From assembly GCA_003485765.1 (NCBI GenBank), contig DNHS01000035.1, forward strand, positions 127,745-191,744: a stretch of 64,000 nucleotides of DNA, given 5' to 3'. Both the position numbers and the translations under genes were made by a program. Source of the stretch: Candidatus Omnitrophota bacterium (GTDB lineage Bacteria; Omnitrophota; Gorgyraeia; Gorgyraeales; Gorgyraeaceae). Shown one piece after another: positions 23,753 through 63,217 of this stretch. Position 1 is the first letter of the stretch, and the number at the start of each line of letters is the position of its first letter. The notes under the pieces are model-generated. The model did no database searches, was not told the origin of the DNA, and worked only from the letters and a program-made list of their open reading frames with translations.

Positions 23753-24963
23753 TAGTAGCTGTTTTTATATCCGCATTTATATTGAGAATAAGCTGGATGC
23801 TTATTACAAGTTCTCATGTCCACCCACGGATATGGGAATATGAAAATATAGCGATAAATCTTTTAAATGGCCATGGATTTACATACTTTCATTTAAATAC
23901 AGTTTATCGTTCCTTTGTGCAGCCCTTGTATCCATTTTTTTGCACTGTTATATATTTGTTCACAAATCATAGTTATTTAATTTTGCAATTGATCCAAATT
24001 ATCATTTCTTCATTCATATGTGTTATTATCTTTGAAATAGCAGGCATTATTTTTGATAGGCGCATAGCTGTATTTTCAGCAATATTGGCAGTTTTCCATC
24101 CTGGTATGATTGTTTATGCTGTAAAGTTACACCCTTTGGTAATAGATACTTTTCTTATATCATTAGTTGCCTTGACATTTTTACATCTCAGGTCAAATTT
24201 TTCTGTACGGAATCAAATCATTGCCGGCATTATAAGCGGATTGTGCATTCTTACTCGTTCTACTATAGGATTGTTTTTGCTTTTAGCTGTAATTTGGCTT
24301 CTTTATAGGAATGGCTATCCTAAGAAGAAGATTATTTTAGGAGGTTTTATTATTTTATTCGCAAGTTTTCTTATTATTTTACCATGGATGATAAGAAATT
24401 ATATGGTTCATAGACAGGTTGTTTTTATGCAAACTACTACTGGAGAAGTTTTTTGGAGGGGCAATAATACTAATGCATCAGGCTCTGCTTACAAGATTGA
24501 CGGCAGGACAGTTTTAGGATCTTCTTCTCCTGAATTTTTAAAAAAACTTTATAGCTTAGATGAAATGGGGCAAAATAAATTATTCAGAGAAGAAGCATTT
24601 GGTTTCATGAAAGGACATCCTTTTGAAGTGATGTCTTTATTTATAAAAAAGAACTACTATTTTTGGTGGTTTTCTCCGCAATCTGGCATGGAATATCCAA
24701 AGCTTTATCTATTAATTTATAAGGCTTTGTATTCTGTTGTTATTTTATTTGGAATTTTAGGTATTATTTTTGCTTTGAGTTCCAGGATAAGCAATATTAG
24801 AGAAAACACTTTATTAATACTGCTTCTTTTTTTATCTATTTCTTTTGCTCAAAGTCTTTTTTATGTAGAAGGAAGGCACAGATGGGCAATTGAACCAATG
24901 CTCCTAATTTTTACTGCAAATGGAATAGTTAATATAAAAAATATGGTAAAAGGTAAAATTTGA
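23731..24963 (+). CDS. ArnT/PMT-like (GT39/GT83) integral membrane glycosyltransferase
   Basis: Paralogue of 2911-4257 (YENIAINLLNGHGFTY loop), more than 10 TM helices. Confidence 0.55.
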   Translation: MHSKKRIIVAVFISAFILRISWMLITSSHVHPRIWEYENIAINLLNGHGFTYFHLNTVYRSFVQPLYPFFCTVIYLFTNHSYLILQLIQIIISSFICVIIFEIAGIIFDRRIAVFSAILAVFHPGMIVYAVKLHPLVIDTFLISLVALTFLHLRSNFSVRNQIIAGIISGLCILTRSTIGLFLLLAVIWLLYRNGYPKKKIILGGFIILFASFLIILPWMIRNYMVHRQVVFMQTTTGEVFWRGNNTNASGSAYKIDGRTVLGSSSPEFLKKLYSLDEMGQNKLFREEAFGFMKGHPFEVMSLFIKKNYYFWWFSPQSGMEYPKLYLLIYKALYSVVILFGILGIIFALSSRISNIRENTLLILLLFLSISFAQSLFYVEGRHRWAIEPMLLIFTANGIVNIKNMVKGKI

Positions 24964-24965
24964 AT

Positions 24966-25049
24966 ATGTACGGGATATGTGGGAAGATTAGTTCAAATGT
25001 AGCGGTTAACGAGAAACTCATCAGTAAGATGTGCTGGACGCATACATAA
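24966..25049 (+). pseudogene. degenerate duplicate of the 5' end of asnB (28 codons)
   Basis: atgtacgggatatgtgggaagattagttcaaatgta… aligns base-for-base with the asnB start at 29324 (atgtgcgggatatgcgggaagattagtataaatggt…). Peptide MYGICGKISSNVAVNEKLISKMC versus MCGICGKISINGNVTEELIRKMC. Ends in a stop after 28 codons. Confidence 0.6.
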
Positions 25050-25185
25050 GTATATCGCATAGCGTAAAAAAGGAGGCCTTTCATGTCAAAGGGCGGATGG
25101 ATAGTAAAGTTTAATAATGTTGAGGTGGAAAGGTGTTATGCGGTTTCGTAGAGGAGGATTAATATAGGCGCTCCGGCAGTATATT

Positions 25186-26340
25186 ATGAATAAAAACATC
25201 AGACTTTCGATAATTTTTATAGTTTTTGCCATAGTTTCCCTGAATGTCTTTCCCGCGTATCCCTCGGATGATAGTTCCCCGGAGAAAATCACTGATATAT
25301 CAGACCGTAAATATGAACAAGTCCTGATCGATTTGCTGGATAACGCTAAAGAATCGATAGTTATTTCCATGTATGGTATAAGCCTTGGCTTCGGAGAAAA
25401 AAGTCCGGTAATGCTCCTATTAAATGACTTGTTAGAGGCTAGGAAACGGGGAGTCAGTGTTACAATGTATCTTAATACCCGCTTTAGGGACACCGATAAA
25501 TCTGAAGGGTCTTTTATTGAAAGCCCTGTGTTTAAGGAGCTGAAAGACGCAGGGTGTGATATTTACCTTATACCGTCCAGCCGTACGCTTCATGATAAAC
25601 TCATAATAGTTGATAGTAGATATGTGGTAATAGGCAGTACAAACTGGTCTAATTCTGCTTTGCGGAGGAATTTCGAATCCAATACCCTTATTGATTCGCC
25701 TCGCCACGCCGGTGAAAAACTCAAGCGGCTTGAAGATGTGTTGAAGTTTGTAAAGTCAAATACGGAAATATCCGGCATTCCTGATTATTTGGAAGATCTG
25801 CCTGAGGAGATAGCTATCTCTGAAGAGCTCCTGGTAAATAAGAAATACTTTTCCCGCATGGTTACAGGCCAGGATGAACGCGTTTTTGATCTATATCTCT
25901 TACTTTTAGGCTATAGCCAATTAACGAGTGAGAGTGAATTTTTCATAAACATGGAAGATATGGCATTGAGTTTGGGACTGCCTAGCGCATGGAGTTATAC
26001 TGCTTTAAGGAGGCAGGTGATAAGAAGCCTGAAGAGGCTCCGGAACCCGTATGATCTTATAAGCGTAGACTTTCTGCATGGTAAAGACGTCTTCGTAAAG
26101 CTTACAGATATCCCGGGTGATTCTTTTGTTATACCATCAGAGTCTATTATGAAGAGGCAAGGCGCTGATTTAACCTTGCGCCTGAAATTTCTTCTTATGA
26201 TAGAGGCTCTCTTCAAAAGCAGAGGGGAAGATATTTCTTCTATAGCAAAGTCTGATCTAGCTAAGCGTTTTAATGTAAATGAATCCACCATCCAGGAAGC
26301 CTTTAATGACTTAAAAAAAATTGAAAGAAACCGCCCTTGA
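25186..26340 (+). CDS. secreted phospholipase-D-superfamily (single HKD, Nuc-like) protein with C-terminal helical extension
   Basis: Signal-peptide-like N-terminus (MNKNIRLSIIFIVFAIVSLNVFPAYPSDD). One HxKx4D motif (HDKLIIVD…GSTNWS). The C-terminal about 200 aa contain winged-helix-like segments. Confidence 0.65.
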   Translation: MNKNIRLSIIFIVFAIVSLNVFPAYPSDDSSPEKITDISDRKYEQVLIDLLDNAKESIVISMYGISLGFGEKSPVMLLLNDLLEARKRGVSVTMYLNTRFRDTDKSEGSFIESPVFKELKDAGCDIYLIPSSRTLHDKLIIVDSRYVVIGSTNWSNSALRRNFESNTLIDSPRHAGEKLKRLEDVLKFVKSNTEISGIPDYLEDLPEEIAISEELLVNKKYFSRMVTGQDERVFDLYLLLLGYSQLTSESEFFINMEDMALSLGLPSAWSYTALRRQVIRSLKRLRNPYDLISVDFLHGKDVFVKLTDIPGDSFVIPSESIMKRQGADLTLRLKFLLMIEALFKSRGEDISSIAKSDLAKRFNVNESTIQEAFNDLKKIERNRP

Positions 26341-26377
26341 GATGTGTCTATATATAAAGCCTATTGCCTTTTTGCGA

Positions 26378-26454
26378 CATGTCTAATAGACACATTCCGC
26401 CAGTGCCTATTGACTTTTAAGTTAGAAGCGGGTAGATTTATATAGAGTTGGCTA
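26378..26454 (+). repeat. about 75-bp direct repeat R3 copy A, containing operator palindrome and sigma70-like promoter
   Basis: More than 90% identical to 31236-31304. Contains ATGTCTAATAGACACAT palindrome, TTGACT (26410-15), 17-bp spacer, TAGATT (26433-38). Confidence 0.6.
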
Positions 26455-26562
26455 AAGGGTGGGGGCAAATAGCCGCCGCCCTTGCAATATTACCATTCTT
26501 ATGTTATACTCATTATAGTGAGTAATAGTTCAATAAAATGAGTATTGGGGAGGGAAGGAGTT

Positions 26563-27129
26563 ATGCTTTCTAGTTATGTTATCTCTACTAATTCACAAAG
26601 CGCATTAAGCTTTCTTCTCGCGCATCCTGACAAATCACATTACGAAAGAGAAATTGCCAGAGGCGCTAAGATTAGTTATGGCTCAGCTAATAATATATTA
26701 AATCGGTTATACAAAGAAAACCTGGTCAAGAGAAAAATTGAAGGCAGGATGTGTTACTATTCTATTGATATGGCTAATCCATATATCAAAGAATTTAAGA
26801 TTCTAAATAATCTCCTTCTTATTGAATCTCTAATAGAACTTCTCAAGCCATATGCCCGCAAGATAATTCTTTACGGAAGCTGGGCTCAAGGAACCGATAT
26901 CGAAAATAGCGATATAGACTTGTTTATTATTACCTCAGATGAAGATAAAGTCAGATCTATTGTTGACAAATATTCTTATACTAACAAAGCAGCCAATAGA
27001 AAAATACAGGCTATTATCAATACCCCTGCTGATCTCCTGAACACAGATGAGAAAGAGGCTGTTTTTATGGAAGAAGTAAAACAAGGAAAAATCTTATGGG
27101 AGAGAGAAATTAATGAACATAACCTTTAA
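26563..27129 (+). CDS. winged-HTH + minimal nucleotidyltransferase (MNT) protein
   Basis: ATG at 26563 follows a GGAGGGAAGGAG RBS; the track start at 26545 is TTG. GSWAQGTDIENSDIDLFII is the pol-beta NTase GS…DxD motif. The N-terminal about 70 aa are wHTH-like. Confidence 0.7.
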   Translation: MLSSYVISTNSQSALSFLLAHPDKSHYEREIARGAKISYGSANNILNRLYKENLVKRKIEGRMCYYSIDMANPYIKEFKILNNLLLIESLIELLKPYARKIILYGSWAQGTDIENSDIDLFIITSDEDKVRSIVDKYSYTNKAANRKIQAIINTPADLLNTDEKEAVFMEEVKQGKILWEREINEHNL

Positions 27130-27544
27130 AGATTGCATAGCAAGTAAGAAAATATTCCGCTTTCCTCCGGCAAAGCACCTTGTAGATCTCGAAATCAAAG
27201 ATTCTGAGGATGATCTGCAATCAGCCGAGGAAGAATTTTCTAAAGCAGGATATAAATGGGCTACGATTAAAGGCTACTATTCAATGTTCCATGCAGCGCG
27301 AGCTCTCCTGTACTCTCGGGGATACAGAGAAAGAGGCCATTATTGTCTTTACCTGGCAATAAAAGAATTCTTCGTTAAAGAAGAGAAGCTAAATCTTCAA
27401 TTGGCAGAAGATTTTAACAATTCTATGATTCTGCGGGAAGAAGCGGATTACAAAAGAAAATTTTCTCAGAAAGGCGCTTCTGGAATAATTGAAAGCGCAA
27501 AAAAATTCCTTAAGGCGGCAAAAGAACTACTAAATCCCCTTTGA
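27113..27544 (+). CDS. HEPN-domain protein (partner of the upstream MNT)
   Basis: All-helical 143 aa with an R-x(3-6)-H-like segment (RERGHY) and REEADYKRK. Start overlaps the MNT stop by 17 nt. Confidence 0.6.
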   Translation: MNITFKDCIASKKIFRFPPAKHLVDLEIKDSEDDLQSAEEEFSKAGYKWATIKGYYSMFHAARALLYSRGYRERGHYCLYLAIKEFFVKEEKLNLQLAEDFNNSMILREEADYKRKFSQKGASGIIESAKKFLKAAKELLNPL

Positions 27545-27585
27545 GCGCCACAAAAGTTCAGTATTTGAATCACAATGATGTTGAA

Positions 27586-28293
27586 ATGATCAAATTTGGC
27601 ATTAGACAGTCATTTGATAATATAGAACAGATAGAAGAGAGATATTCAAAATTGGATGCGCCTGTAGAGTTGGCTCTGCCTTACTACTGGGATATATATG
27701 AGCCTGTTAGAGGTCGTTTAACGGAAGTAGTTGAAAAGATAAGATCGTACGGGACAAAAGTTTTAAGTGTGCATGCGGTTCAGGCTCCTATTACGGATGA
27801 ACGATTTAAGATATGGGGAAATGAAATAGCTGATTTCGCTAGGACGCTCGGGGCGACGAATATTACTTTGCACCCTAACAATGTTAATAAGGATAAAGCT
27901 GTCCAAGACGAAGCGCTCAAGAATTTGGAATATTTTTCCGGGCTATATAAAAACGATGTGGTCTTTTGTATTGAAACTTTTGAAGGTAAGCGAAGAGTTT
28001 TTACTCCCGATGAAATAGCATCATTTAACTTGCCGATGACATTGGATACATCACATATACGAGAGGACGAAAAGGTCTGGAGCTTGATTAAGGGATATAA
28101 AGAGCGCATCTTCAATGTGCATCTTTCAGCAAGAGAAGGCGCGAGACAACATCTGCCTATTGACGATTTTTGCAAAGAGGTGGTGCGCTATCTGATAGAT
28201 AACAAATGGACCGGGAATGTAATATTGGAGTATCTACCAGAATTTCACGGGCATCTGATAAGCGATCTAGAATTGCTGAAAGCAATGCAGTAG
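27586..28293 (+). CDS. xylose-isomerase-like TIM-barrel protein (AP-endonuclease-2 / sugar-phosphate isomerase fold)
   Basis: Alternating beta-strand/His-Glu pattern (MIKFGI…LSVHAV…ITLHPN…CIETFEG…DTSHI…NVHLSA…EYLPEFHGH), spaced as in endonuclease IV and sugar-phosphate isomerases. The track start is TTG 27541 overlapping the HEPN stop (TTGA); first ATG is 27586. Confidence 0.4.
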   Translation: MIKFGIRQSFDNIEQIEERYSKLDAPVELALPYYWDIYEPVRGRLTEVVEKIRSYGTKVLSVHAVQAPITDERFKIWGNEIADFARTLGATNITLHPNNVNKDKAVQDEALKNLEYFSGLYKNDVVFCIETFEGKRRVFTPDEIASFNLPMTLDTSHIREDEKVWSLIKGYKERIFNVHLSAREGARQHLPIDDFCKEVVRYLIDNKWTGNVILEYLPEFHGHLISDLELLKAMQ

Positions 28294-28489
28294 GTCTTAA
28301 TAGAGGATTTCATGAGAGAGGCCGTAGAGTTTTTGAAGAACTTAGTTTTTGGCAAGGAATATCTTAAGGCGACTATAAAAGAATACTAGCATCGGGGACG
28401 TCTTACTGCGCTGTAACATTTTACCATATAATAAGTTACGAGCCTTATGGTTCTAAAATATAAGGCATTTCTATGTGATGTATTCGAAT

Positions 28490-28574
28490 CGTGACGCGCT
28501 GCGTCACGAATTAAGCTGGACGCACTATAGGAAAAATTACTCATCAAGATATAGCCCAGGTTTAAACCTGGGCT
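28490..28574. repeat. two GC-rich perfect hairpins/palindromes in the Phd-RelE upstream region
   Basis: cgtgacgcGCTgcgtcacg (28490-28508) and the perfect 22-mer AGCCCAGGTTTAAACCTGGGCT (28553-28574). Confidence 0.5.
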
Positions 28575-28595
28575 GCTGCGAGCTGAACTGTTACC

Positions 28596-28624
28596 TTGAC
28601 AGATATCCAAAAATAGGATATACT
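28596..28624 (+). promoter_or_regulatory. sigma70-like promoter of the Phd/RelE pair with internal operator
   Basis: TTGACA(28596-601)-17 bp-TATACT(28619-624). The spacer contains inverted repeat ATATCC-N7-GGATAT. Confidence 0.45.
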
Positions 28625-28666
28625 TTTAATGTAGACACAAAGGTAACTACAAAGGAGGTGAGTGTG

Positions 28667-28957
28667 ATGAGCATTGCTGCTGATTTATTAAAAGCTAATC
28701 ATGTTGGCATCAGGGATATTAAAGAACATCTATCTACACGGCTGCTTAAAGATATTTTGGTAATAACTGATAGGGGCACGCCTGTAAGTGTAAATCTGCC
28801 TTATTCTGATGTATTAGAATTGATAGATATTATTGATGAGGCGGCGGATTTGGAAACTATGGCTACAGTTAGCGAAGGAAGATTGGCAATAAGGGAAGGC
28901 GCAAAAGGTATACTGGTTGCCGATCTTTTTAAAAGAATAAGGACGCAGCGTAAATGA
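28667..28957 (+). CDS. Phd/YefM-family antitoxin
   Basis: ATG 28667 preceded by AAGGAGG; the longer track ORF from 28475 has no RBS and runs through the palindromes. Sequence …GIRDIKEHLSTRLLKDILVITDRGTPVSV… fits Phd/YefM. Stop overlaps the toxin start (ATGA). Confidence 0.6.
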   Translation: MSIAADLLKANHVGIRDIKEHLSTRLLKDILVITDRGTPVSVNLPYSDVLELIDIIDEAADLETMATVSEGRLAIREGAKGILVADLFKRIRTQRK

Positions 28958-29262
28958 AATACCAGGTTAGGTTCCCCGGTCATTCTATTGAGAAAAAATT
29001 TGAGAAATTTCTTTTAAAGATTCATCCGGTAAGCCTGCAAGAAGAAATTATGCAAGACCTGAGTAAGCTTGCCGATAACCCCCGGCCTTATGGTGAAAAG
29101 GCTTTTAAGAAACTCAAGCTGCCTATTCAATTTTATCAGTATGTTGCGCAATACAGAATAAGAATAGGCGACTATAGAATGCTTTATGATGTAGATGATG
29201 AGAAAAAGATTGTATGGATTTTAGCATTGAGAAGGCGTTCGGAAAAAACATACAGAACATAA
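28954..29262 (+). CDS. RelE/ParE-family toxin
   Basis: C-terminus YRIRIGDYRMLYDVDDEKKIVWILALRRR is the RelE/ParE/YoeB signature. Confidence 0.7.
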   Translation: MKYQVRFPGHSIEKKFEKFLLKIHPVSLQEEIMQDLSKLADNPRPYGEKAFKKLKLPIQFYQYVAQYRIRIGDYRMLYDVDDEKKIVWILALRRRSEKTYRT

Positions 29263-29323
29263 CCCACTAAACACATAGGATAGAGGCGATTATTGACACA
29301 TTTGTGTAAATAAAGGGAGACGT

Positions 29324-31204
29324 ATGTGCGGGATATGCGGGAAGATTAGTATAAATGGTAATGTGACAGAAGAACTCATCAGGAAGATGTGTGGGGTGCT
29401 TACGCATAGGGGGCCGAATGACGAAGGGGTTTATGTAAAAGGAGGTATGGGGCTGGGGCATAGGAGGCTCGCTATTATTGATTTATCGCAGGCTGGGCAT
29501 CAGCCGATGAGTAATGAAGATGGTTCTATCTGGATAGTTCTGAATGGAGAGATTTATAATTTTATTGAGTTAAGAGAGGCGCTTGAAAAAAAAGGCCACA
29601 GGTTTAAATCTCATGCAGATACTGAAGTAGTATTACATTTATATGAGGATAAAGGCGTAGAATGCCTTAAGGATTTAAGAGGGCCTTTCGCGTTCGCGAT
29701 ATGGGATAGCAGGAAAGAACTTCTTTTTATTGCCAGAGATAGGATTGGCAAAAAACCATTATATTACCATTATAGAAATCAGACATTGATCTTTGCTTCC
29801 GAGATTAAGGCTATCCTGCAGGATCCTGATGTATCGAGAGAGGTCAACAGACCTGCAATAACAGATTATCTAAGTTATGGATATACGCCTACGCCAGAAA
29901 CTATGTTTAAGAATATTGTGAAGCTCCCGCCTGCTCATTTTATGGTCTATGAAAAAGGCAATATAAGATTAGAAAAATACTGGGAACTTGATTTTTCAAA
30001 AAAGATAAAAATGTCCGAGAAAGATTATTGCCATAGAACCATGGAACTTCTTGAAGAATGTACTAAGATACGCCTAATAAGCGATGTACCGCTAGGAGCT
30101 TTCTTAAGTGGGGGCATAGATTCGAGCGCTGTAGTGTATATGATGAGCAAACTAAGTTCAAAGCCTGTAAAGACATTTTCCATAGGTTTCGATGATAAAG
30201 AGTATAGCGAATTAAAATACGCTAAAGTTATTGCAGATAGATTTAAAACAGAACATCATGAGTATATTGTTAAGCCAGACGCTATAGAACTTTTACCAAA
30301 ACTCGTATGGCATTACAATGAACCTTACGCTGACTCTTCAGCTCTGCCCAGTTATTATGTGGCGAAGATGACCAGACAAGAAGTGACTGTCGCTTTAAAC
30401 GGAGATGGAGGGGATGAGGATTTTGGAGGATATGAAAGGTTTATGGCAGCAAGATTCGCTGAATCAATCAGTAAATCGCCTGTGCCTTTCAAGGATAAAA
30501 TTATAAAGCTTATTGTAAGTAGTATTCCAGAATCCATGGGATTTAAGGACTCTAGGTTCAGGCTTAGGAGGTTTTTAATCGAGTTATCAAAGCCATGCAG
30601 GGAAAGGCATTACAATTGGATATCGATATTCAGCGAGCATGAAAAGGAAAACATGTTTACAGCAGGATTTGCCGGAGAACTTGCCGGAAAGAGTTCATTT
30701 AATTATTTAGACAGAGCGTTTAATGAATGCGGCTCAAAAGATATTGTAGATTTAGTGATGTCAGCGGATATAAAGACTAATCTATTGGATGACCTGCTTG
30801 TGAAAATGGATATAGCAACAATGGCGAATTCGCTGGAAGGCAGGTCGCCGTTTTTAGATCATAAGATGATGGAGTTCTGTGCCGCTATGCCGAGCAATAT
30901 GAAAATAAAAGGCACAAAATTAAAATATATATTAAAGAAAGCGTTATCCAAGGCATTGCCTAAGGAAATACTTTCCCGAGGCAAGATGGGATTCGGCGTG
31001 CCACTGGACGCCTGGTTTCGTAAAGAATTAAAAGACTATTCTTATGGCATTTTAATGAGCGATAACTGCGTAAATAGAGGTTATTTTAAAAAAGACGTTA
31101 TAAAGAAAATCCTTGATGAACACACCTCCGGCAAAGCCAATAACGGCGCCAGGATCTGGAGCCTATTATTCCTGGAATTATGGCATAAGGAATTTATAGA
31201 TTAA
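29324..31204 (+). CDS. asnB: asparagine synthase (glutamine-hydrolysing) family amidotransferase
   Basis: MCGICG N-terminal Cys nucleophile, RGPNDEG, SGGIDSS PP-loop, 626 aa. Confidence 0.9.
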   Translation: MCGICGKISINGNVTEELIRKMCGVLTHRGPNDEGVYVKGGMGLGHRRLAIIDLSQAGHQPMSNEDGSIWIVLNGEIYNFIELREALEKKGHRFKSHADTEVVLHLYEDKGVECLKDLRGPFAFAIWDSRKELLFIARDRIGKKPLYYHYRNQTLIFASEIKAILQDPDVSREVNRPAITDYLSYGYTPTPETMFKNIVKLPPAHFMVYEKGNIRLEKYWELDFSKKIKMSEKDYCHRTMELLEECTKIRLISDVPLGAFLSGGIDSSAVVYMMSKLSSKPVKTFSIGFDDKEYSELKYAKVIADRFKTEHHEYIVKPDAIELLPKLVWHYNEPYADSSALPSYYVAKMTRQEVTVALNGDGGDEDFGGYERFMAARFAESISKSPVPFKDKIIKLIVSSIPESMGFKDSRFRLRRFLIELSKPCRERHYNWISIFSEHEKENMFTAGFAGELAGKSSFNYLDRAFNECGSKDIVDLVMSADIKTNLLDDLLVKMDIATMANSLEGRSPFLDHKMMEFCAAMPSNMKIKGTKLKYILKKALSKALPKEILSRGKMGFGVPLDAWFRKELKDYSYGILMSDNCVNRGYFKKDVIKKILDEHTSGKANNGARIWSLLFLELWHKEFID

Positions 31205-31235
31205 TACCCTTCCCTTTGATAGCCCACTTTCATGG

Positions 31236-31304
31236 CATGTCTAATGGACACATTCTGCCAGCGCCTATTGACTTTTAAGTTAGAAGCGGGTAGATTTATA
31301 TATA
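31236..31304 (+). repeat. direct repeat R3 copy B with promoter (TTGACT 31268-73 / TAGATT 31291-96)
   Basis: Near-identical to 26378-26454. Confidence 0.6.
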
Positions 31305-31328
31305 GTAATTAAAAATCTGGAGGGATAA

Positions 31329-31899
31329 ATGACAAAAGAGGCAGCTGTTACTAAAATTGCTATTTTTCGGAAGAAAGAGATCAGGAAAACCATTCATAAG
31401 AATGAATGGTGGTTTGTTATTGAAGACGTTATCTCAGCTTTGATTAATTCCAGTGATCCTAAGCAGTATATACAGAGAATGAAACAAAGGGATCCAGAGT
31501 TGGCCAAAGGGTGGGTACAAATTGTACATACCCTTGAAATTCGCACAGAAGGTGGAAGGCAGAAGATGAACTGTGCAAATACAGAAGGTATTTTTCGCAT
31601 TATCCAGTCTGTTCCTGACCCCGTCCGCGTATAAAAAGTTTAAAGGATTAAAGCGGCAAAATCTGCGGGATCATATGAATGACTTGGAGCTAATCTTCTC
31701 AATGCTTGGAGAGGCATCCACTAAAGAAATCACCATAAATAAAAATGCTCAGGGATTTATTGAGACTAAACAAGCGGCCCAGGAGGGCGGCGCTGTCGCA
31801 GGCAATGCTAGAAAAGAATTGGAAAGAAAGAGCGGTAAAAAAGTATTAACGCGTGAAAATTATCTAAAGGCAGCTCAAAGCAAGAAACTCTTGAATTAA
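31329..31899 (+). pseudogene. Bro-N domain / DinD-like gene split by a +1 frameshift
   Basis: ORF 31329-31634 carries a Bro-N-like N-domain (…NEWWFVIEDV…TEGIFRIIQSVP). The +1 frame ORF continuing to 31899 carries a DinD-like C-terminus (…QGFIETKQAAQEGGAVAGNARKELERKSGKKVLTRENYL). The frames switch near the C-run at about 31617. Confidence 0.5.
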
Positions 31900-31917
31900 T
31901 GGAGTAATATTATTTTA

Positions 31918-31966
31918 GGAAAGAAAAATTTTTGAAAGAAAACGCTTTTGAGATGTGTCTTATATA
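31918..31966 (+). repeat. repeat R2 copy 1 (ends in GAGATGTGTCTTATATA box)
   Basis: Matches 34083-34140 apart from a 9-nt indel. Confidence 0.5.
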
Positions 31967-32022
31967 GTAGCGAATCAAGGACTCTAATCCGCTGATTTTG
32001 TAAAAAATCCTTACTTTCGTCC

Positions 32023-32051
32023 TTGACGATTTCCTTACTTTATGGTATATT
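32023..32051 (+). promoter_or_regulatory. sigma70-like promoter of the AbrB-type antitoxin cassette
   Basis: TTGACG-17 bp-TATATT, then RBS GGGAGGTGAG and ATG 32074. Confidence 0.45.
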
Positions 32052-32073
32052 TGATAACGGGAGGTGAGAAAAT

Positions 32074-32331
32074 ATGACAGTTACCATGACCGCAAAGAAT
32101 CAAATAACCATACCTAAAAAGATCACAGAAGCCTTGGGTTTAGAAAAGGGGTCTATGTTCAAGGTAGAGGTTTCTAAGAATGGGATAGAGTTTATTCCTC
32201 TGGAGACAAAAGAGAGGGAGTTTACCCATGAGGAATATACAAAATTAGAAACCCTGGCAGTACAAGAAAAGGGAAAAGAGAAGCGCGTGACAAAAAAGCT
32301 TATCGATAATTTAAAAAAAGGGAAAATTTAA
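32074..32331 (+). CDS. AbrB/MazE/SpoVT-type (swapped-hairpin) antitoxin
   Basis: N-terminus TMTAKNQITIPKKITEALGLEKGS is the SpoVT/AbrB looped-hinge motif. Confidence 0.7.
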   Translation: MTVTMTAKNQITIPKKITEALGLEKGSMFKVEVSKNGIEFIPLETKEREFTHEEYTKLETLAVQEKGKEKRVTKKLIDNLKKGKI

Positions 32332-32334
32332 TCA

Positions 32335-32472
32335 ATGCCTTTACGAAGGCCTTATTATGAAGCCGGGATAGAAGGAAGTATTCGTGTTGTGATAAGACAA
32401 GAGGGGCAAATGTGTATTGCAGTATTAGCAGGGAATCACGACCAAATAAGACAATTTCTGGCCACTGGGTAG
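32335..32472 (+). pseudogene. truncated RelE/ParE-like toxin remnant (45 aa)
   Basis: Begins 4 nt after the antitoxin stop. Peptide …SIRVVIRQEGQMCIAVLAGNHDQI resembles only the C-terminal beta-sheet of RelE/ParE; the N-terminal half is absent. Confidence 0.3.
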
Positions 32473-32558
32473 AGAACCTTCCCCTATATAAACCAAACAT
32501 AGAGGCGCGTTATGGAAAGGACGAAGTCGCCAAGGCAAGAGAGCTTAGCTTTATGATA

Positions 32559-32620
32559 GTCTCCTCCATGCGTTCGGATAATCCTTTAAGGAATATTGGA
32601 TATGTGGTTGGGATTTTAAG
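32559..32620 (+). repeat. repeat R1 copy 1
   Basis: About 90% identical to 34022-34082 (gtctcctccatgcg…ggataatcctttaag…gggattttaag). Confidence 0.55.
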
Positions 32621-32718
32621 ATATGCCCGATAGACATATTTCGTCAGTACCTATTGACAAAATAAAAATATAGATTATACTCTATATAGAGATAGGTTAT
32701 AATCTATATGCAAGCATA

Positions 32719-33441
32719 GTGGGGATTTCTATGGATTTGAAGCTAAGAGAGGCACAAAAACTTGTTCTGAAGATATTTTCGCAAGAGGCAGAGGATTTCG
32801 CGCTTGCCGGCGGCACAGCACTTGAATTATATTACCTGCGTCACAGATTTTCTTCGGATCTGGATTTTTTTTCAAGAAAATACCCCGTTTCAGAAATAGA
32901 TACTTTGGTAGAGGCCTTTGAAAAACATCTGGATCAGAAAATTCATCTGGAATCAGAATTTGTTTCCGTCAATAAGGCGTGCGTCCGGTTTTATGCTATA
33001 CCGGTCAAGGGTTCGGATAGGCCATTAAAGATTGATTTTGTTGAAGATGTTGTGTGTACTCGCCCGGTAATACGGAAAATTGACGGTGTCCGCGTGTATA
33101 GCGCGGAGGATTTATACCTGCATAAAATAGCCGCTATTTCTGGCACTCAAGTTATAACAGATGAGGTCGGCAGGCAAGTCAGCGAAGGCCGCAAAGAGGC
33201 GCGGGATGTATTTGACGTGTACATGCTTTCAAAAAAAATACAGCCATTGCACATATTCCTGCGCAGTCTTTCGCCCCGGTTCCAAAAGGGGATAGTCCAC
33301 TGGTATCGGACATTTTCCAGGCAGGAACTCAAGCTCGCGCTAATGGAGCTGGATATTTACGATACTGAATTCAATGCCAGGGAATTGGTTATTTATCTGG
33401 AAAACGAGGTCAAGCAATTAGCCAAGGAGGCAATAGGATAA
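32719..33441 (+). CDS. AbiEii/AbiGii-family nucleotidyltransferase (type IV TA toxin-like, DUF1814)
   Basis: …FALAGGTALELYYLRHRFSSDLDFFS… is the AbiEii GGTAL…R.SxDLDF NTase motif. An alternative ATG is at 32731. Confidence 0.7.
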   Translation: MGISMDLKLREAQKLVLKIFSQEAEDFALAGGTALELYYLRHRFSSDLDFFSRKYPVSEIDTLVEAFEKHLDQKIHLESEFVSVNKACVRFYAIPVKGSDRPLKIDFVEDVVCTRPVIRKIDGVRVYSAEDLYLHKIAAISGTQVITDEVGRQVSEGRKEARDVFDVYMLSKKIQPLHIFLRSLSPRFQKGIVHWYRTFSRQELKLALMELDIYDTEFNARELVIYLENEVKQLAKEAIG

Positions 33442-33950
33442 TGATTATTTCAAAATATTTTTGGGACATAAGTGAAACTGCCCTGAAAGAAACAGCCAGG
33501 ATACTTAAAAATCCAAAACATCCTCAATTTCCGGTTAAAATGGTAATTTTTATGTCGCGCTGTGATAAGCCAAAGGAGCTATTTTCCTTGATTGCCAAGG
33601 ATGAGTTTATAGACGCATGGCCAAAGATCAGGGCTCAATGGATAAAACGCGCGCGGCAGTCAGATTTCAGGGATTGGTGGGAAACAATCTATGAACATCT
33701 CGTAGATGCGCATGGACGAGCGCGCAGAAAACCCACAAGCGCCACGCCGGTTTTTTTCCGAAAGTTTGGAGCGCTTATTAAAGAAGCGAGGATTCGGAAA
33801 GGGTTGAGCCAGAAACAATTGGCGCATCGCATAGGTATGAAACAGCCGGATGTTTCCAGGATAGAAGAAGGCAGGAAAAATATCACGCTATACACCGTCA
33901 TGCGTTTCTGCAATGTTTTAGGCATTAAGAAAATTACAGTAGGCCAGTAA
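33441..33950 (+). CDS. protein with unknown N-domain and C-terminal XRE-family HTH
   Basis: C-terminus LIKEARIRKGLSQKQLAHRIGMKQPDVSRIEEGRKNITLYTV is Cro/C1-type HTH. The ATG overlaps the AbiEii stop by 1 nt (TAATG). Confidence 0.6.
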   Translation: MIISKYFWDISETALKETARILKNPKHPQFPVKMVIFMSRCDKPKELFSLIAKDEFIDAWPKIRAQWIKRARQSDFRDWWETIYEHLVDAHGRARRKPTSATPVFFRKFGALIKEARIRKGLSQKQLAHRIGMKQPDVSRIEEGRKNITLYTVMRFCNVLGIKKITVGQ

Positions 33951-34021
33951 AACGTCAACTATTTTTTCGACCCTGTAATTATAATTGTCGCATAACAAAT
34001 GTAGCCAAAGCAGTCAAAAAA

Positions 34022-34140
34022 GTCTCCTCCATGCGGCCGGATAATCCTTTAAGAAACATTGGATATTTAGTGGGGATTTTAAGGAAAGAAAAATTTTAAA
34101 AATTTTTGAAAGAAAACGCTTTTGAGATGTGTCTTATATA
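34022..34140 (+). repeat. repeats R1 copy 2 + R2 copy 2 (ends in GAGATGTGTCTTATATA box)
   Basis: Direct duplicates of 32559-32620 and 31918-31966. Confidence 0.55.
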
Positions 34141-34168
34141 TGAAAGAGGGCTTGGGCATGGGGTGATA

Positions 34169-34197
34169 TTGACACATTTGTGTAAATGTGGTATATT
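34169..34197 (+). promoter_or_regulatory. sigma70-like promoter of RHH-MazF cassette with ACACAnnTGTGT operator
   Basis: TTGACA-17 bp-TATATT. The 20-mer ATTGACACATTTGTGTAAAT is also present at 29292-29311 immediately upstream of asnB. Confidence 0.45.
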
Positions 34198-34217
34198 TTG
34201 TTCAGGAGGTGAGTTAT

Positions 34218-34469
34218 ATGGTAAAAAAGAATATGGGAAGGGAAAGATTGAGCATTGATGTATTGCCGGAAGAACACAGGCAGATTAAGGCATATGCCGC
34301 GCTGTATGGTAAGACAATGAGAGAATATGTATTGGAATGCGTACAGAAAAAACTGCGAGAGGAAACTGAACAAAAGGAATTAGCTAATATGAGCGCATAT
34401 CCTGACAAGGATTCTATATTAAACAGCGTATGGGAAAATAAAAAGGATGCGGCATATGATAAAATGTAA
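34218..34469 (+). CDS. ribbon-helix-helix (CopG/ParD-like) antitoxin
   Basis: ATG 34218 after CAGGAGGTGAG. ERLSIDVLPEEHRQIKAYAALYGKTMREYVLECV is beta-strand then two helices. Confidence 0.6.
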   Translation: MVKKNMGRERLSIDVLPEEHRQIKAYAALYGKTMREYVLECVQKKLREETEQKELANMSAYPDKDSILNSVWENKKDAAYDKM

Positions 34470-34806
34470 ATACGGAGACATTGTATTAGTAAACTTTGGT
34501 TTTTCTGAAGGGATTGGGTTTGAGAAAAGGCCTGCGTTGGTTATAAGCAGTGAGGCATATCATGCGGAAAGGCAGGAGGTAGTTATCCTGGCTATTACCA
34601 GCAATGTAAATAGAATATTCTTGGGCGACACAAAGATTTCTCAATGGAAAGAAGCTGGATTGCTTTATCCTTCACTTGTTACAGCGATTATAAGGACAGT
34701 AAAATCAGATATGATTTTTAGGAAAATAGGGGAGATCGGGCCGGATGATTTAAAGAGGGTAGAGAGCAGTATAAAGAAAATTTTTGGAATAACTGGAGAA
34801 AAGTAA
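34447..34806 (+). CDS. MazF/PemK-family toxin (mRNA interferase)
   Basis: YGDIVLVNFGFSEGIGFEKRPALVISSEAYH is the PemK/MazF signature. Confidence 0.75.
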   Translation: MRHMIKCKYGDIVLVNFGFSEGIGFEKRPALVISSEAYHAERQEVVILAITSNVNRIFLGDTKISQWKEAGLLYPSLVTAIIRTVKSDMIFRKIGEIGPDDLKRVESSIKKIFGITGEK

Positions 34807-34820
34807 AGCTAGGAGGCAAA

Positions 34821-35558
34821 ATGGCGATGAGAAGTTATGGCTGGGTGCCGGATAGGCCGGATCAGAGGGATTATTTATATAAGGCGATAAGGCCTGTGGT
34901 GAGATTGCCTGAGAAAGTGGATTTGAGGGAATTTTGTTCTATTGTTGAGAATCAGGAGGCGCTTGGGAGCTGTACGGCGAATGCGCTAGCAGGAAATTTG
35001 GAATATTTGGACCATAAAATAGATGATGAATATGAGGATGTGTCGAGACTTTTTATTTATTACAATGAAAGAGTTTTGGAAGATACAGTTGATTATGATT
35101 CAGGAGCATCTCTAAGAGATGGCATTAAGACATTGAGGAAACAAGGCGCGTGCTGGGAAAAGACGTGGCCGTATTTAATAGAGAAATTTACCCGAAAGCC
35201 GCCTCTAAAATGCTACAAAGAAGCTAAAAAACACCAAATTGAATCCTACCACCGCATAGGCGCCCTATCTGAAATGCTTACCTGCCTCGCTGAAGGATAT
35301 CCGTTCGTCTTTGGTTTTACTGTTTATGAAAGTTTCCAGTCGCAGAAAGTGGCCAAAACAGGTGTGGCTAATATGCCCAGGAAGAAGGAAAAAGTCCTTG
35401 GCGGACATGCTGTCCTGGCAGTAGGCTATAACCAGAAGCAAAAGAGATTTATAGTGCGAAATTCCTGGGGAACTAAATGGGGCAAAGACGGATATTTCAC
35501 CATGCCGTACGAATACCTCGAAACCCTTTCAGCAGACTTCTGGACAATAAGAAAATAA
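34821..35558 (+). CDS. papain-like C1A cysteine peptidase, no signal peptide and no prodomain
   Basis: Full catalytic set: Gln (ENQ), Cys (GSCTANA), His (GGHAVLAVGY), Asn-Ser-Trp (NSWGTKWGKDGYF). AGGAGG RBS 5 nt upstream. Starts 15 nt after the MazF stop. Confidence 0.8.
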   Translation: MAMRSYGWVPDRPDQRDYLYKAIRPVVRLPEKVDLREFCSIVENQEALGSCTANALAGNLEYLDHKIDDEYEDVSRLFIYYNERVLEDTVDYDSGASLRDGIKTLRKQGACWEKTWPYLIEKFTRKPPLKCYKEAKKHQIESYHRIGALSEMLTCLAEGYPFVFGFTVYESFQSQKVAKTGVANMPRKKEKVLGGHAVLAVGYNQKQKRFIVRNSWGTKWGKDGYFTMPYEYLETLSADFWTIRK

Positions 35559-35575
35559 ATAGTTATAATAAAGCC

Positions 35576-36745
35576 ATGAAAATATTAAGAATTATAGCAA
35601 GACTTAATATAGGCGGGCCGGCGAGAAATGCGGTCTTGTTAACAGAAGGATTCCCGGGAACTGCGCTTATTTGTGGGGAGGTGGATAAGTCTGAGGGCGA
35701 TATGATGTATTTGGCAGGCGAGAAAGGGATAAAGCCTATTATTATAAAAGAGTTAGGAAGAGAATTATCCTGGAAAGATGATTGGGCGGCGTTTTGGAAG
35801 ATATATAAGATTATTCGCGAGGTAAAGCCGGATATCATTCATACGCATACGGCGAAGGCAGGGACGCTAGGGAGGTTTGCAGGGATATTATATGGTAAAG
35901 CTATTTTAATCCATACCTTTCACGGCCATGTGTTTAGCGGGTATTTTGGGAAGGTTAAGACAATATTTTTTATATGGGTGGAGAAATTTTTAGCGTTGTT
36001 TACTGACACGATAATTACAGTAAGCGAGGCGTTGAAAAAAGAATTGGTAGAAAAATATAGAATAGCGCCAGAGAAAAAATTCAGCGTAATAGAATTAGGT
36101 TTTGAACTGGATGAGCTTTTGAAATTGCCGCCAAGAGAAAACAGCGGAACTGTAAATGTTGGAATTGTGGGAAGGTTAGTGCCTGTAAAAAATCATAAGA
36201 TGATGCTTAGAGTGGCTAAAAGAGTAGGCGATATACAGGGACAGTCCCCTAAAAAGGGGACAGTCCCTGTAGAAATAGTCCCTGTGCGCTATATGATTAT
36301 TGGCGATGGGGAGATGAGGGGAGAACTGGAAAGATACGTGGAAGAATTGGGCATAAAAGATAAAGTAGAGTTCAAGGGATGGGTAAAGGACTTAAAGGCT
36401 ATTTATGAAGAACTTGACATTGTGGCATTGACTTCATTGAATGAAGGAACGCCCGTATCTCTCATAGAAGCAATGGCTGGCGGGAGACCTGTGATAGCTA
36501 CAAATGTAGGCGGCGTAAAGGATATTGTGAAAGATGGCGCGAGCGGATATCTTGTAGAATTAGGAAATGTAGAAGAATTTATTAAAAAACTCCTGGAATT
36601 AATTAAAGATCCTGAGAAAAGAAGAAAATTTGGCGAAAACGGCAGGAATATCGTGAAAGATCGATTCTCAAAAGAAAGATTGATTAAAGATACCGAGAAG
36701 TTGTATAATAATACCCTGCAAGAAAATCAATTTCTTCGGTCTTAA
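35576..36745 (+). CDS. family 4 glycosyltransferase (carries an in-frame palindromic insertion)
   Basis: MKILRIIARLNIGGPARN start and EGTPVSLIEAMAGGRPVIATNVGGVKDIV motif. ATG 35576; the track start at 35477 overlaps the peptidase. Confidence 0.75.
   Translation: MKILRIIARLNIGGPARNAVLLTEGFPGTALICGEVDKSEGDMMYLAGEKGIKPIIIKELGRELSWKDDWAAFWKIYKIIREVKPDIIHTHTAKAGTLGRFAGILYGKAILIHTFHGHVFSGYFGKVKTIFFIWVEKFLALFTDTIITVSEALKKELVEKYRIAPEKKFSVIELGFELDELLKLPPRENSGTVNVGIVGRLVPVKNHKMMLRVAKRVGDIQGQSPKKGTVPVEIVPVRYMIIGDGEMRGELERYVEELGIKDKVEFKGWVKDLKAIYEELDIVALTSLNEGTPVSLIEAMAGGRPVIATNVGGVKDIVKDGASGYLVELGNVEEFIKKLLELIKDPEKRRKFGENGRNIVKDRFSKERLIKDTEKLYNNTLQENQFLRS
36236..36286. repeat. GC-rich hairpin-repeat element inserted in-frame within the GT4 gene
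   Basis: cagGGACAGTCCCctaaaaagGGGACAGTCCCtgtagaaatAGTCCCtgtg: three GGGACAGTCCC-type hairpin units. Translated as …GQSPKKGTVPVEIVPV…. Confidence 0.5.
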
Positions 36746-36867
36746 GACTGGAGTTTGTTTGAAATTGATACTGAGCCCACTATTGTTTCAGTGGCGGGCG
36801 AATGTATAAAGATAATTGAAAGAATTTAGCCTCCAGATGTGTCTAGTATGGTAGAAAGGAGGCTGAT

Positions 36868-37278
36868 ATGACTATGAACAAGAAAGAAAAAGGAGAAATA
36901 GCGGGATTAAGAGGGGAACTGCGAAGCTCTGTGGGAGAATTAAGAGGAGAATTGCAGAGTTCTGTGGGAGAATTAAGAGGGGAACTGCGAAGCTCTGTGG
37001 GAGAATTAAGAGGAGAGTTGCGAAGCTCTGTGGAAGAACTAAGAATACACATGGGTGTCTTGGTAGAGGGTTTGCGTTCAGAAGTTAGGGTGGTAGCTGA
37101 ACAATATGGAAGCGTTGTAAAAAAGCTGGAAGAACATGACAGGAGATTTGATAAAATTGATCTAAGATTTGACAGAATCGACTTAGAGTTTATCGGTATG
37201 AAGACAGGTTTGTTTGATACTAGTCATAGAGTAGATGATCACGAAACAAGAATCAGAAAATTAGAATTAGCTAAATAA
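36868..37278 (+). CDS. small coiled-coil protein with four tandem 11-aa repeats (GELRSSVGELR)
   Basis: ORF preceded by GAAAGGAGG. Repetitive heptad-like N-half and a conserved-looking C-half (…RRFDKIDLRFDRIDLEF…). Confidence 0.4.
   Translation: MTMNKKEKGEIAGLRGELRSSVGELRGELQSSVGELRGELRSSVGELRGELRSSVEELRIHMGVLVEGLRSEVRVVAEQYGSVVKKLEEHDRRFDKIDLRFDRIDLEFIGMKTGLFDTSHRVDDHETRIRKLELAK
36914..37045 (+). repeat. 4 x 33-bp near-perfect tandem repeats inside the coding sequence
   Basis: Unit ggaactgcgaagctctgtgggagaattaagagg, repeated head-to-tail. Confidence 0.7.
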
Positions 37279-37290
37279 TCAGGAGACAAG

Positions 37291-38250
37291 ATGAAAGTTT
37301 TAATTACCGGCGGTGCAGGGTTTATCGGGTCGCACTTAAGCGATGAATTGATAGCAGGCGGGAATGAGGTAGTTATATTGGATGACCTTTCTACAGGAAG
37401 ATTTGAGAATATTACCCATTTAGACGGAAATAAGTCATTCCAATTTATAGAGGGCACTATACTTAATGAAACGCTTGTAGATAAATTAGTTGAAAGATGC
37501 GATGTGGTATATCATTTAGCCGCGGCAGTAGGAGTGGATCTTGTAGTAAAGAAGCCGCTAGAATCTTTAGTTACTAATATCAAAGGAAGCGAGATAGTTC
37601 TTGATATGGTGCACAGATATCATAAAAAGATTCTTATCACCTCTACGTCTGAGATATACGGCAAGAATACAAACGGCCCTTTAAAAGAAGATGATGACAG
37701 GATTTTAGGTTCGCCTCTTAAAGTGAGATGGGGTTATTCTACTGCAAAGGCAGTGGATGAAATGCTGGCTTATATTTACTGGAAAGAGAAAAAAGTTCCG
37801 ACTGTTATAGTGAGGCTTTTTAATACAGTTGGGCCGCGTCAGACAGGCGCTTATGGCATGGTAGTACCCAGATTCATAAATCAAGCTCTTAGAAATGAAG
37901 ATATAACTGTGTATGGGACAGGTAAGCAGTCCAGGTGTTTTTTGCATGTCAAAGATGTTATTAAGACGCTTATCAAGCTAATGAATAATAAAGACGCGGT
38001 TGGAAATGTGTTTAATATAGGGAGCCATGAAGAGATAACAATAGAAAATTTAGCGAAAAAAATAATAGAAATCTCTAAGAGTAAATCAAAAATTACTTAC
38101 ATATCTTACGAAAAAGCCTACGAAGAAGGTTTTGAAGACATGCAGCGCCGCGTGCCTGACACTACAAAGGTAAAAAATTTAGTCGGTTTCAATCCTACCA
38201 TGGATTTAGAAGGCATCATAAAAAGCGTAATAGAATATTATAAAAAATAA
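37291..38250 (+). CDS. NAD-dependent sugar-nucleotide epimerase/dehydratase (extended SDR)
   Basis: MKVLITGGAGFIGSHL, catalytic YSTAK. Confidence 0.75.
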   Translation: MKVLITGGAGFIGSHLSDELIAGGNEVVILDDLSTGRFENITHLDGNKSFQFIEGTILNETLVDKLVERCDVVYHLAAAVGVDLVVKKPLESLVTNIKGSEIVLDMVHRYHKKILITSTSEIYGKNTNGPLKEDDDRILGSPLKVRWGYSTAKAVDEMLAYIYWKEKKVPTVIVRLFNTVGPRQTGAYGMVVPRFINQALRNEDITVYGTGKQSRCFLHVKDVIKTLIKLMNNKDAVGNVFNIGSHEEITIENLAKKIIEISKSKSKITYISYEKAYEEGFEDMQRRVPDTTKVKNLVGFNPTMDLEGIIKSVIEYYKK

Positions 38251-38252
38251 TC

Positions 38253-42555: not shown

Positions 42556-42628
42556 TATTTAGGCCTTAAACAACTTTACATTTCAACAATGTTGATTTGT
42601 AAAGTTGTTTGGAAACATAGGAGTTTAC

Positions 42629-63191: not shown

Positions 63192-63217
63192 CACTTTAAC
63201 ATTGTTAAAATGTCAAG

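Follow-up and report, generated by a model that had tools for sequence, protein, structure and literature searches.

The 64,000-nucleotide (nt) stretch of DNA analysed here, which we call the window, covers positions 127,745 to 191,744 of contig DNHS01000035.1 from a Candidatus Omnitrophota bacterium (assembly GCA_003485765.1), a contig that originates from a Rifle groundwater metagenome (ENA ERZ978281, SRR1658344). Its genes lie almost all on the plus strand and their products are glycan biosynthesis enzymes, the cluster being interrupted at about 25.1-35.6 kb by an island of accessory genes. A preliminary description of this island, made from the letters alone, reported that its modules are joined by several repeats and by a recurring motif containing the 8-mer ATGTGTCT. 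We find that this motif is the core of a longer, oriented element, the D2 box, which marks gene starts and is neither a palindromic regulator site nor a recombination scar. D2 recurs in many Omnitrophota genomes, and we propose that it may be a promoter. To our knowledge, the phylum has no cultured, genetically tractable member, and we know of almost nothing about its gene regulation. Loci compared with the window come from other contigs and carry L-numbers; the close relative referred to below is contig JAUSEX010000052.1, positions 16,001-40,000 (loci L054, L055 and L062). The open reading frames (ORFs) of the island, the four boxes and the gene that follows the last of them are arranged as follows.

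25186..26340, plus strand: PLD/HTH protein gene
26291..26358, plus strand: D2 copy 1, core TTGAAAGAAACCGCCCTTGAGATGTGTCTATATAT at 26321-26355, overlapping the last codons and the TGA of the PLD/HTH gene
28954..29262: ParE toxin gene, preceded by a small ORF without Pfam match
31329..31634 and 31573..31899, plus strand: Bro-N gene, frameshifted into two overlapping ORFs, with an intact 278-aa orthologue in the relative
31913..31973, plus strand: D2 copy 2 (repeat R2 of the preliminary description), core at 31932-31970
32074..32331: AbrB/MazE-like gene with its own sigma-70-type promoter
34078..34147, plus strand: D2 copy 3 (also R2), core at 34106-34140, 100% identical to copy 2 over 43 nt
36806..36870, plus strand: D2 copy 4, canonical and intact, core from 36816, GGAGG 11 nt past GTGTCT, ATG at 36868
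36868..37278, plus strand: coiled-coil gene, behind D2 copy 4
within about 25.1-35.6 kb: nucleotidyltransferase-HEPN pair (from a domain scan of the window ORFs)
within about 25.1-35.6 kb: C1 peptidase gene
within the island: AbiEii gene and HTH partner, with the AbiEii promoter TTGACA-16-TATACT
within the island, downstream of the promoter at 34169-34197: RHH-MazF module

The repeats of the island are real and far beyond chance, and a sensitive self-comparison places them only within 26-37 kb of the window. The 8-mer ATGTGTCT occurs six times in the window against 0.83 expected, a count reached by none of 100 shuffles, with four copies on the plus strand (26342, 31953, 34127 and 36837). All four share a longer pattern of two blocks, TTGAAAGAA-N10-AGATGTGTCT, starting at 26321, 31932, 34106 and 36816, for which 0.00 matches are expected when two mismatches are permitted; relaxed two-block patterns yielded no copy beyond these four in the 64 kb. 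The coordinates previously given for the repeated motif are correct apart from copy 4, which starts at 36834, not 36835. Its placement after the stop codon of four successive modules holds for copy 1, which overlaps the TGA at 26338-26340, but copies 2-4 lie 51, 174 and 89 nt beyond the stop before them, and it is more apt to place them ahead of the next module than behind the last one. The complete box is about 45 nt long, bipartite and on the same strand as the gene behind it: an A/T-rich tract is followed by TTGAAAGAA(AA), by 8-10 variable nt (often GCCTCC) and by AGATGTGTCT(T)ATATAGTAG, and the consensus over instances reads A/T-rich tract, TTGAAAGAAAA, t.gCCTCc, AGATGTGTCT, tATATAgtAG. 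An inverted-repeat search found no dyad symmetry at the D2 boxes.

The four copies differ in what stands behind them. Copy 4 is preceded by a terminator-like hairpin (36734-36753) and probably serves the coiled-coil gene at 36868; the arrangement of glycosyltransferase, box and coiled-coil gene is orthologous in three other loci (L005, L028, L054). Copies 2 and 3 stand upstream of toxin-antitoxin modules that have strong sigma-70 promoters of their own: about 50 nt past copy 2 lies TTGACG-17-TATATT (32023-32051), the promoter of the AbrB/MazE-like gene, and the RHH-MazF promoter (34169-34197) comes after copy 3. The unit of box and module at copy 2 recurs behind different upstream DNA in two further contigs (L070, L069). 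Copy 1 is an orphan, with only relics behind it and no Shine-Dalgarno sequence (SD) or ATG, and the relative has a counterpart of its 68-nt unit (94% identity) behind a different gene. Copies 1 and 3 share 84% identity over 49 nt and copies 1 and 2 share 78% over 55 nt; the repeat R2 (31924-31966 and 34098-34140, 43 nt) is simply the box of copies 2 and 3 with its flank. Within the window, modules of the toxin-antitoxin-rich island, which is inserted in the glycan cluster, have the box on their 5' side. Two trivial explanations were set aside. A mini-ORF from the ATG inside the box (MCLI*) is not kept across copies and has no SD before it. A sequencing-adapter artefact would account for 8 nt only, AGATGTGT, which we take to be common to the box and the Tn5 mosaic end, and the box recurs in independent assemblies of many projects.

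The box is an element of a clade rather than of this island. When one genome per species was scanned with TTGAAAGAA-N10-AGATGTGTCT, the pattern that fits all four window copies, 63 stretches matched against about 4 expected by chance according to our own estimate. The extended box is present in 54 of them, 50 of which are labelled Omnitrophota or Omnitrophica and come from 18 genomes (groundwater, lakes, sediments and marine biofilms), the other four being from four genomes under other labels; the remaining matches (a Poribacteria coding sequence, Firmicutes and others) are without the extended motif. A metagenome scan with block 2 alone returned 41 stretches, and block 1 stands at the same spacing in 33 of these and at one additional nt in 4, which shows that the two blocks go together. 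When all compared DNA was searched with a profile, non-exact copies were added that keep TTGAAAGAA and (A)TGTGTCTTATATAGTAG and vary between them. Overall, TTGAAA-N17-GTGTCT is found in about 100 instances and the N18 form in a few, and degenerate copies keep GAAAG-N16/17-TGTCT. The preliminary description had also raised the opposite case, a generic promoter element spread evenly over the genome, and this proves half right: the box is a promoter-type element across the clade, yet it is uneven in distribution, with 4 copies within 11 kb of the 64-kb window and, on the 164-kb contig of the relative, all 7 exact copies confined to a 24-kb island and the remaining 140 kb free of them. Two further features were seen in passing. 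Block 1 is replaced by ATGCATAAAAATCAC, block 2 being unchanged, at two loci (L095, L096), both before REP-type (repetitive extragenic palindromic) tyrosine transposase genes. In seven others (L003, L006, L013, L016, L017, L040, L084), GTCCTATTTAGGTACACCCTAG recurs in the gap that separates the preceding gene from the A-rich tract, 30-60 nt ahead of the box.

Every D2 copy is aimed at the next ORF, and all copies of one contig are on one strand. In about half of 64 instances, the SD (GGAGG) lies 8-12 nt and the ATG 22-26 nt past GTGTCT; the remaining instances have a hairpin, a dyad or a second canonical promoter inserted in between. The genes behind the box are not homologous to one another, being of AbrB/MazE, RHH/ParD and coiled-coil type in the window and belonging to more than 20 Pfam families over all loci. 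A first set of loci gave ORF6N (11), SpoVG (4), RecA (3), ComM-type Mg-chelatase (2), DprA (2), DUF2130 (2), KilA-N (2), Y1 transposase (2), RhuM, a DNA methylase and DUF1016. A second set gave DinD (4, E 3e-122), YhcG/DUF1016 (5), the four-helix-bundle family 23S_rRNA_IVP (2), REP-associated tyrosine transposase (2), RhuM (2), DprA, DUF488 and toxin-antitoxin genes. By association, then, the box connects core genes of recombination and DNA damage to a large number of accessory genes for DNA-binding proteins, nucleases and transposases. The genes behind the box at these loci included none for a sigma factor.

A gene-centred test used eight Omnitrophota recA loci found by RecA homology and picked blind to the motif. 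A D2-like box stands upstream of recA in five of the eight; four are found by nhmmer (E 7e-10, 5e-9, 6e-5 and 0.21) and the fifth (L113), a degenerate one, only by a relaxed two-block pattern. The boxes upstream of recA all retain GAAAGAA-N-TGTCT. At L111, recA has no upstream box and the box precedes the adjacent Y1 transposase gene instead. A canonical TTTACT-N15-TGTATAAT promoter follows the box at a distance of 30-87 nt in all five box-bearing blind loci and in three more recA loci that the pattern scan had picked up, and the neighbouring alaS and htrA-type protease genes of the recA loci have no box in front. The canonical recA promoter itself is well conserved in Omnitrophota (L106-L113, L008, L012, L056), and cinA is the divergent neighbour of recA in most of the eight blind loci. 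At compact recA loci, the box is followed by an SD-like GGAGGTG and a mini-ORF of one or two codons, which overlaps the region just upstream of the canonical promoter.

Strict orientation, fixed spacing of the blocks, the upstream A-tract and the short, fixed distance to the SD point to a transcription start element. We give slightly better than even odds to the proposal that D2 is a non-sigma-70 promoter of a recombination/DNA-damage-type gene set that is also used by mobile genes. The A-tracts would resemble an UP element, TTGAAA would be the –35 and GTGTCT, 17 nt on (18 in some copies), the –10, and transcription would start near the G or A of TATAGTAG to give a very short leader; the reader of the box would be an alternative sigma factor or a dedicated activator. 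We infer start site, reading factor and inducing signal alike. A start at TATAGTAG would keep the SD within the mRNA, and TTGAAA-N17-GTGTCT has the geometry of the sigma-70 family. It is not a housekeeping sigma-70 promoter, however: the hexamer found 17 nt from TTGAAA is GTGTCT, with TATATA at 23 nt, and a sigma-70 scan of 26000-37300 flagged 41 promoter-like sites, including none of the four boxes, with the toxin-antitoxin promoters scoring 10-11 of 12. Furthermore, if TATATA or TATAGT were the –10, transcripts would begin within the SD or beyond it, which argues against a sigma-70 –10 there. A strong intrinsic terminator ends 11-24 nt short of TTGAAAG in at least 7 loci, leaving no room for another promoter. 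Degenerate copies hold GAAAGAA and TGTCT at a spacing of 16-17 nt while the spacer varies. In addition, hairpins that begin at the conserved GTAG, with stems that differ in sequence and covary, are perfect in about 6-9 of 103 copies, and stems of at least 10 bp just after the box are found in 9 of 103 copies against about 2 expected (L012, L046, L053, L083, L093, L008; for example GTAGGGAACGGTTTCAAACCGTTCCCTAC); these hairpins fit 5'-terminal mRNA stems and also resemble REP elements.

Promoters of extracytoplasmic function (ECF) sigma factors typically have an AAC in the –35 block and a CGT in the –10 block. D2 has the two gene-oriented blocks of such an alternative-sigma promoter, at a fixed spacing of about 16-17 nt. 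Several observations weigh against reading it as a promoter. Its blocks read GAAAG and TGTCT, without the ECF-like AAC and CGT, and GTGTCT fits no –10 consensus that we know of. Conservation extends through AGAT and TATATAGTAG, more than sigma contacts usually explain. Terminators are not enriched upstream of the box (9 of 104, against 7 in a control region). Three of the eight blind recA loci are without a box, the box is degenerate in two of the other five, and the counts of downstream genes are not independent since they come from motif-selected loci that include orthologous groups. Finally, the spacer is often CCTCC, complementary to the downstream SD, and the transcript of a canonical copy would form a stable hairpin (z –2.3 to –2.7), which fits a role at the RNA level.

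That role would be one in which D2 acts as a 5'-leader, the spacer CCTCC pairing with the SD and a AGAUGUGUCUUAUAUAGUAG loop binding a protein or small RNA that controls translation. In canonical copies, an anti-SD/SD hairpin is predicted at –13 to –16 kcal/mol, and some changes are G:U-compatible. The longest helix between spacer and SD averages 6.16 against 5.68 ± 0.20 when permuted (35 of 2000 permutations reach the observed value), in a test that includes orthologous, non-independent instances and with a covariation signal that is weak and not general. However, many copies read CCTCG or drop CCTCC wholly with both outer blocks kept, window copies 1-3 do not fold, and D2 is kept where the SD is 50-200 nt off, as at recA and the toxin-antitoxin modules. 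The terminators that end just upstream of the box in at least 7 loci, with no upstream promoter visible, conflict with an RNA element, and no Rfam family matches D2: Rfam 15 over 24000-38500 gave only two chance-level matches (E 0.77 and 0.95), neither at a box. We consider a leader function unlikely.

Slightly less likely again, in our judgment, is a role of D2 as a site of recombination or as the terminus of a mobile cassette, integron-like or IS200/REP-like (IS, insertion sequence), which would set the boundaries of module exchange. The box does form same-strand arrays with a spacing of 0.6-6 kb (7 copies in 24 kb of the relative, 3 in 5.7 kb of L017 and 4 in 11 kb here), homology between genomes often starts about 20-30 nt upstream of it, and the cargo families behind it, REP-type tyrosine transposase genes among them, are typical of mobile cassettes. 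Its GTAG end, behind which a hairpin stands in some copies, recalls REP sequences. On the other hand, D2 has no dyad, no inverted partner and no GTTRRRY-type core; it occupies orthologous positions before the core genes recA, spoVG, dprA and comM in several species; its fixed distance to SD and ATG suits expression more than integration; and the D2 pattern has no match in the viral contigs scanned. No integrase, recombinase or transposase is encoded by the 30 window ORFs scanned (about 23.7-48.6 kb, with a few gaps). An integron cassette array was rejected for this last reason and also because D2 lacks the inverted repeats and core sites of attC, copies 1-3 folding no better than shuffles. Ends of a miniature inverted-repeat transposable element or IS were rejected as well, since all copies of each multi-copy contig are on one strand and the one insertion examined is without a clean duplication: in the relative, the similarity of ATGAAAATAT and ATGATTAAAATA is too imprecise for a target-site duplication.

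The remaining repeats of the island have other origins. Their copies, and a relic of asnB at the left edge of the island, are as follows.

24965-25100, plus strand: relic of the asnB 5' end, 68% identical to 29323-29450 (asnB start 29323), directly behind a PMT_2-type gene
26370..26488, plus strand: R3 copy a, relic of the Bro-N promoter (dyad CATGTCTAATAGACACAT and TTGACT-17-TAGATT) fused to a 45-nt remnant of Bro-N coding sequence
29292..29311, plus strand: the 20-mer ATTGACACATTTGTGTAAAT, –35 and spacer of an RHH-MazF-type promoter, without –10, just upstream of the asnB SD
31228..31306, plus strand: R3 copy b, working Bro-N promoter region, 93% identical to the region before the intact Bro-N of the relative
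32498..32620, plus strand: R1 copy a, internally deleted 3'-end relic of a PLD/wHTH-family gene (...VSSMRSDNPLRNIGYVVGIL)
32614..32681, plus strand: 5' half resembling R3, dyad ATATGCCCGATAGACATAT joined to the AbiEii promoter
33997..34083, plus strand: R1 copy b, 3'-end relic of the same PLD/wHTH-family gene, abutting D2 copy 3
34168..34197, plus strand: full RHH-MazF promoter, TTGACA-17-TATATT with upstream TG, holding the second 20-mer and conserved in the relative

R3 aligns 26378-26448 with 31236-31306 (71 nt, 94%), with a weaker third copy of its 5' half at 32614-32658 (78%), and R1 aligns 32558-32620 with 34021-34083 (63 nt, 89%). The earlier placing of the 20-mer both in the RHH-MazF promoter and upstream of asnB is confirmed by an exact pair at 34168 and 29292, with none expected. 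R1, R3 and the 20-mer are what remains of gene and promoter duplications. The relative has an intact small gene that ends in R1 (...KVSSMRPDNPLRNIGYLVGILR), present in three copies, two of them directly after a PLD-domain ORF, and the differences between the window copies of R1 are mostly synonymous. R3 precedes the Bro-N gene in both window and relative, and the 45-nt interior piece of Bro-N behind copy a (26444-26488, matching 31496-31540) indicates a collapsed second Bro-N module.

These repeats bear on the idea, put forward in the preliminary description, that a shared regulator recognises ATGTGTCT half-sites, that is, that one HTH regulator of the island binds D2, R3 and the 20-mer at a palindromic operator. 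The 8-mer is over-represented, the island encodes several HTH proteins, and one R3 copy does hold the reverse complement of ATGTGTCT within its dyad. At this place the other two R3 copies have GGACACAT and AGACATAT, however, and the arms of the dyad covary between genomes with a different sequence (TGTCT/AGACA here, TGCC/GGCA in the relative), from which we conclude that the R3 dyad is separate from D2 and the single ATGTGTCT match coincidental. The dyad of the 20-mer, ACACA-TT-TGTGT, is another sequence again and part of the RHH-MazF promoter. Among all loci compared, R3 and the 20-mer are found only in this lineage, in contrast to the clade-wide D2, in which ATGTGTCT is an asymmetric piece of a strictly oriented box of about 45 nt without dyad. 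This comparison lends no support to the half-site model, and we regard a common HTH regulator of the three elements as very improbable.

The proposal of a modular, recombination-driven assembly of the island fares better, and the R1, Bro-N and asnB relics together with the reordered modules of relatives support a mosaic origin. The close relative carries the same island as a mosaic in different order, and at the asnB locus its homology with the window begins only at the ATG. Related genomes have the same modules in other orders with different insertions and deletions, and others have the AbrB module upstream of asnB or lack the whole segment of R1, box and RHH-MazF. At the left edge of the island, G+C steps from about 0.31 to about 0.40 at about 25 kb, and the asnB relic sits exactly at this jump, which suggests that an older asnB region was replaced by a downstream block. 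Near-identical direct repeats of D2 are probably also passive substrates of homologous recombination that reshuffles modules, and in this form the earlier notion of stitching repeats persists.

Returning to D2 as a promoter, the genes behind it would make up a co-regulated set of DNA-damage or competence type, in which recA, dprA, comM, dinD-like genes and spoVG are joined by accessory genes (ORF6N, Bro-N, KilA-N, RhuM, YhcG, REP-type transposases and toxin-antitoxin genes), and mobile and defence genes would have captured the promoter, often along with its ribosome-binding site. Regulon promoters for repair and competence include the streptococcal ComX cin-box, the Bacillus sigma-H promoters (spoVG) and the mycobacterial PafBC/RecA-NDp promoter. 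As in these systems, one oriented box stands before recA, dprA and comM-, dinD- and spoVG-type genes, is unlike the housekeeping promoter and, at recA, is in tandem with a canonical one. In contrast to them, most D2 copies serve accessory or mobile genes, and the sequence TTGAAAGAA...AGATGTGTCTTATATAGTAG fits none of the ComX, sigma-H and PafBC consensus motifs. LexA SOS boxes likewise share with D2 an association with recA, dinD-like, mobile-element and toxin-antitoxin genes, often wired to DNA damage; they consist of a short dyad or direct repeat to which a repressor binds and which functions in either orientation, whereas D2 is long, asymmetric and strictly oriented, and an SOS box was rejected in spite of the recA association since D2 has no dyad symmetry. 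Integron cassette arrays offer a likeness in that a repeated element separates short same-strand modules rich in toxin-antitoxin genes, but, unlike attC, D2 belongs to the 5' end and ribosome-binding site of the next gene, and the modules have promoters of their own. REP sequences are similarly dispersed and intergenic, with the GTAG end, an occasional palindromic hairpin and REP-type transposase genes nearby; the D2 core differs from them in not being palindromic, in showing no inverted pairs and in its fixed distance to the start codon. A further parallel is with putative mobile promoters, which are defined purely by similarity (50-100 nt at >=80% identity) and have no common function (Matus-Garcia, Nijveen and van Passel 2012, PMC3488235). 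As with these, near-identical non-coding D2 segments are reused before unrelated genes and kept between genomes, the identical copies 2 and 3 preceding AbrB-type and RHH-type genes; D2 differs in having a defined bipartite core and coherent downstream families, and its identical stretch is 43-49 nt long, the pairs of copies compared within the window all lying at the border of that definition.

The boldest form of our proposal is that D2 is the promoter of a DNA-damage or competence regulon in a large Omnitrophota clade, read by a dedicated factor and captured together with the ribosome-binding site by dozens of mobile, defence and toxin-antitoxin genes, which would thereby fire with recA, dprA, comM and dinD. 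We hold this only tentatively. If true, it would amount to a stress-response circuit that is undescribed as far as we have searched, and to a promoter that spreads through the genome like a mobile element. D2 fits no consensus motif known to us and no Rfam family, its nearest concepts being the promoters of competence and DNA-damage regulons and the putative mobile promoters, and a literature search on the D2 motif and on Omnitrophota promoter motifs found nothing relevant. A long, easily recognised and searchable box would give a handle on a regulon joining recA, dprA, comM, dinD and spoVG with mobile and defence genes, usable across the phylum in genome scans, existing metatranscriptomes and phylogenetic profiling for the reading factor. 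It also suggests that module-border repeats in such islands may be shared promoters travelling with genes rather than recombination scars, and in annotation D2 could predict true start codons and flag decayed modules.

Other features of the window deserve mention. A pair of a small ORF and a MazF/PemK gene lies at 47455-48026 inside the glycan cluster and has no D2 box, and the adjacent DUF4254 protein gene (48046-48624) is the only gene on the minus strand. The coiled-coil gene, whose L005 and L054 orthologues are shorter at about 100 aa, holds four tandem repeats of 33 nt (11 codons) at 36906-37070. The spacer before box copy 4 (36768-36825) has an inverted match of 58-63 nt (82%) to 15696-15758, inside a glycosyltransferase gene 21 kb away, and a related form of this match is present in the relative. 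A near-perfect palindrome of 17 bp, TACAGGGACAGTCCCCT / AGGGGACAGTCCCTGTA, lies at 36234-36271 within a glycosyltransferase ORF, in a segment absent from relatives (blast gap 36202-36292). Finally, a second widespread Omnitrophota element is a palindrome of about 45 nt, AAACAACTTTACA...TGTAAAGTTGTTT, with a stem of about 20 bp, present in the window at 42568-42621 and 63181-63234 and in eight other loci (L002, L022, L025, L037, L047, L080, L106, L113), where it occupies short same-strand intergenic gaps, often beside D2 or between D2 and recA or comM.

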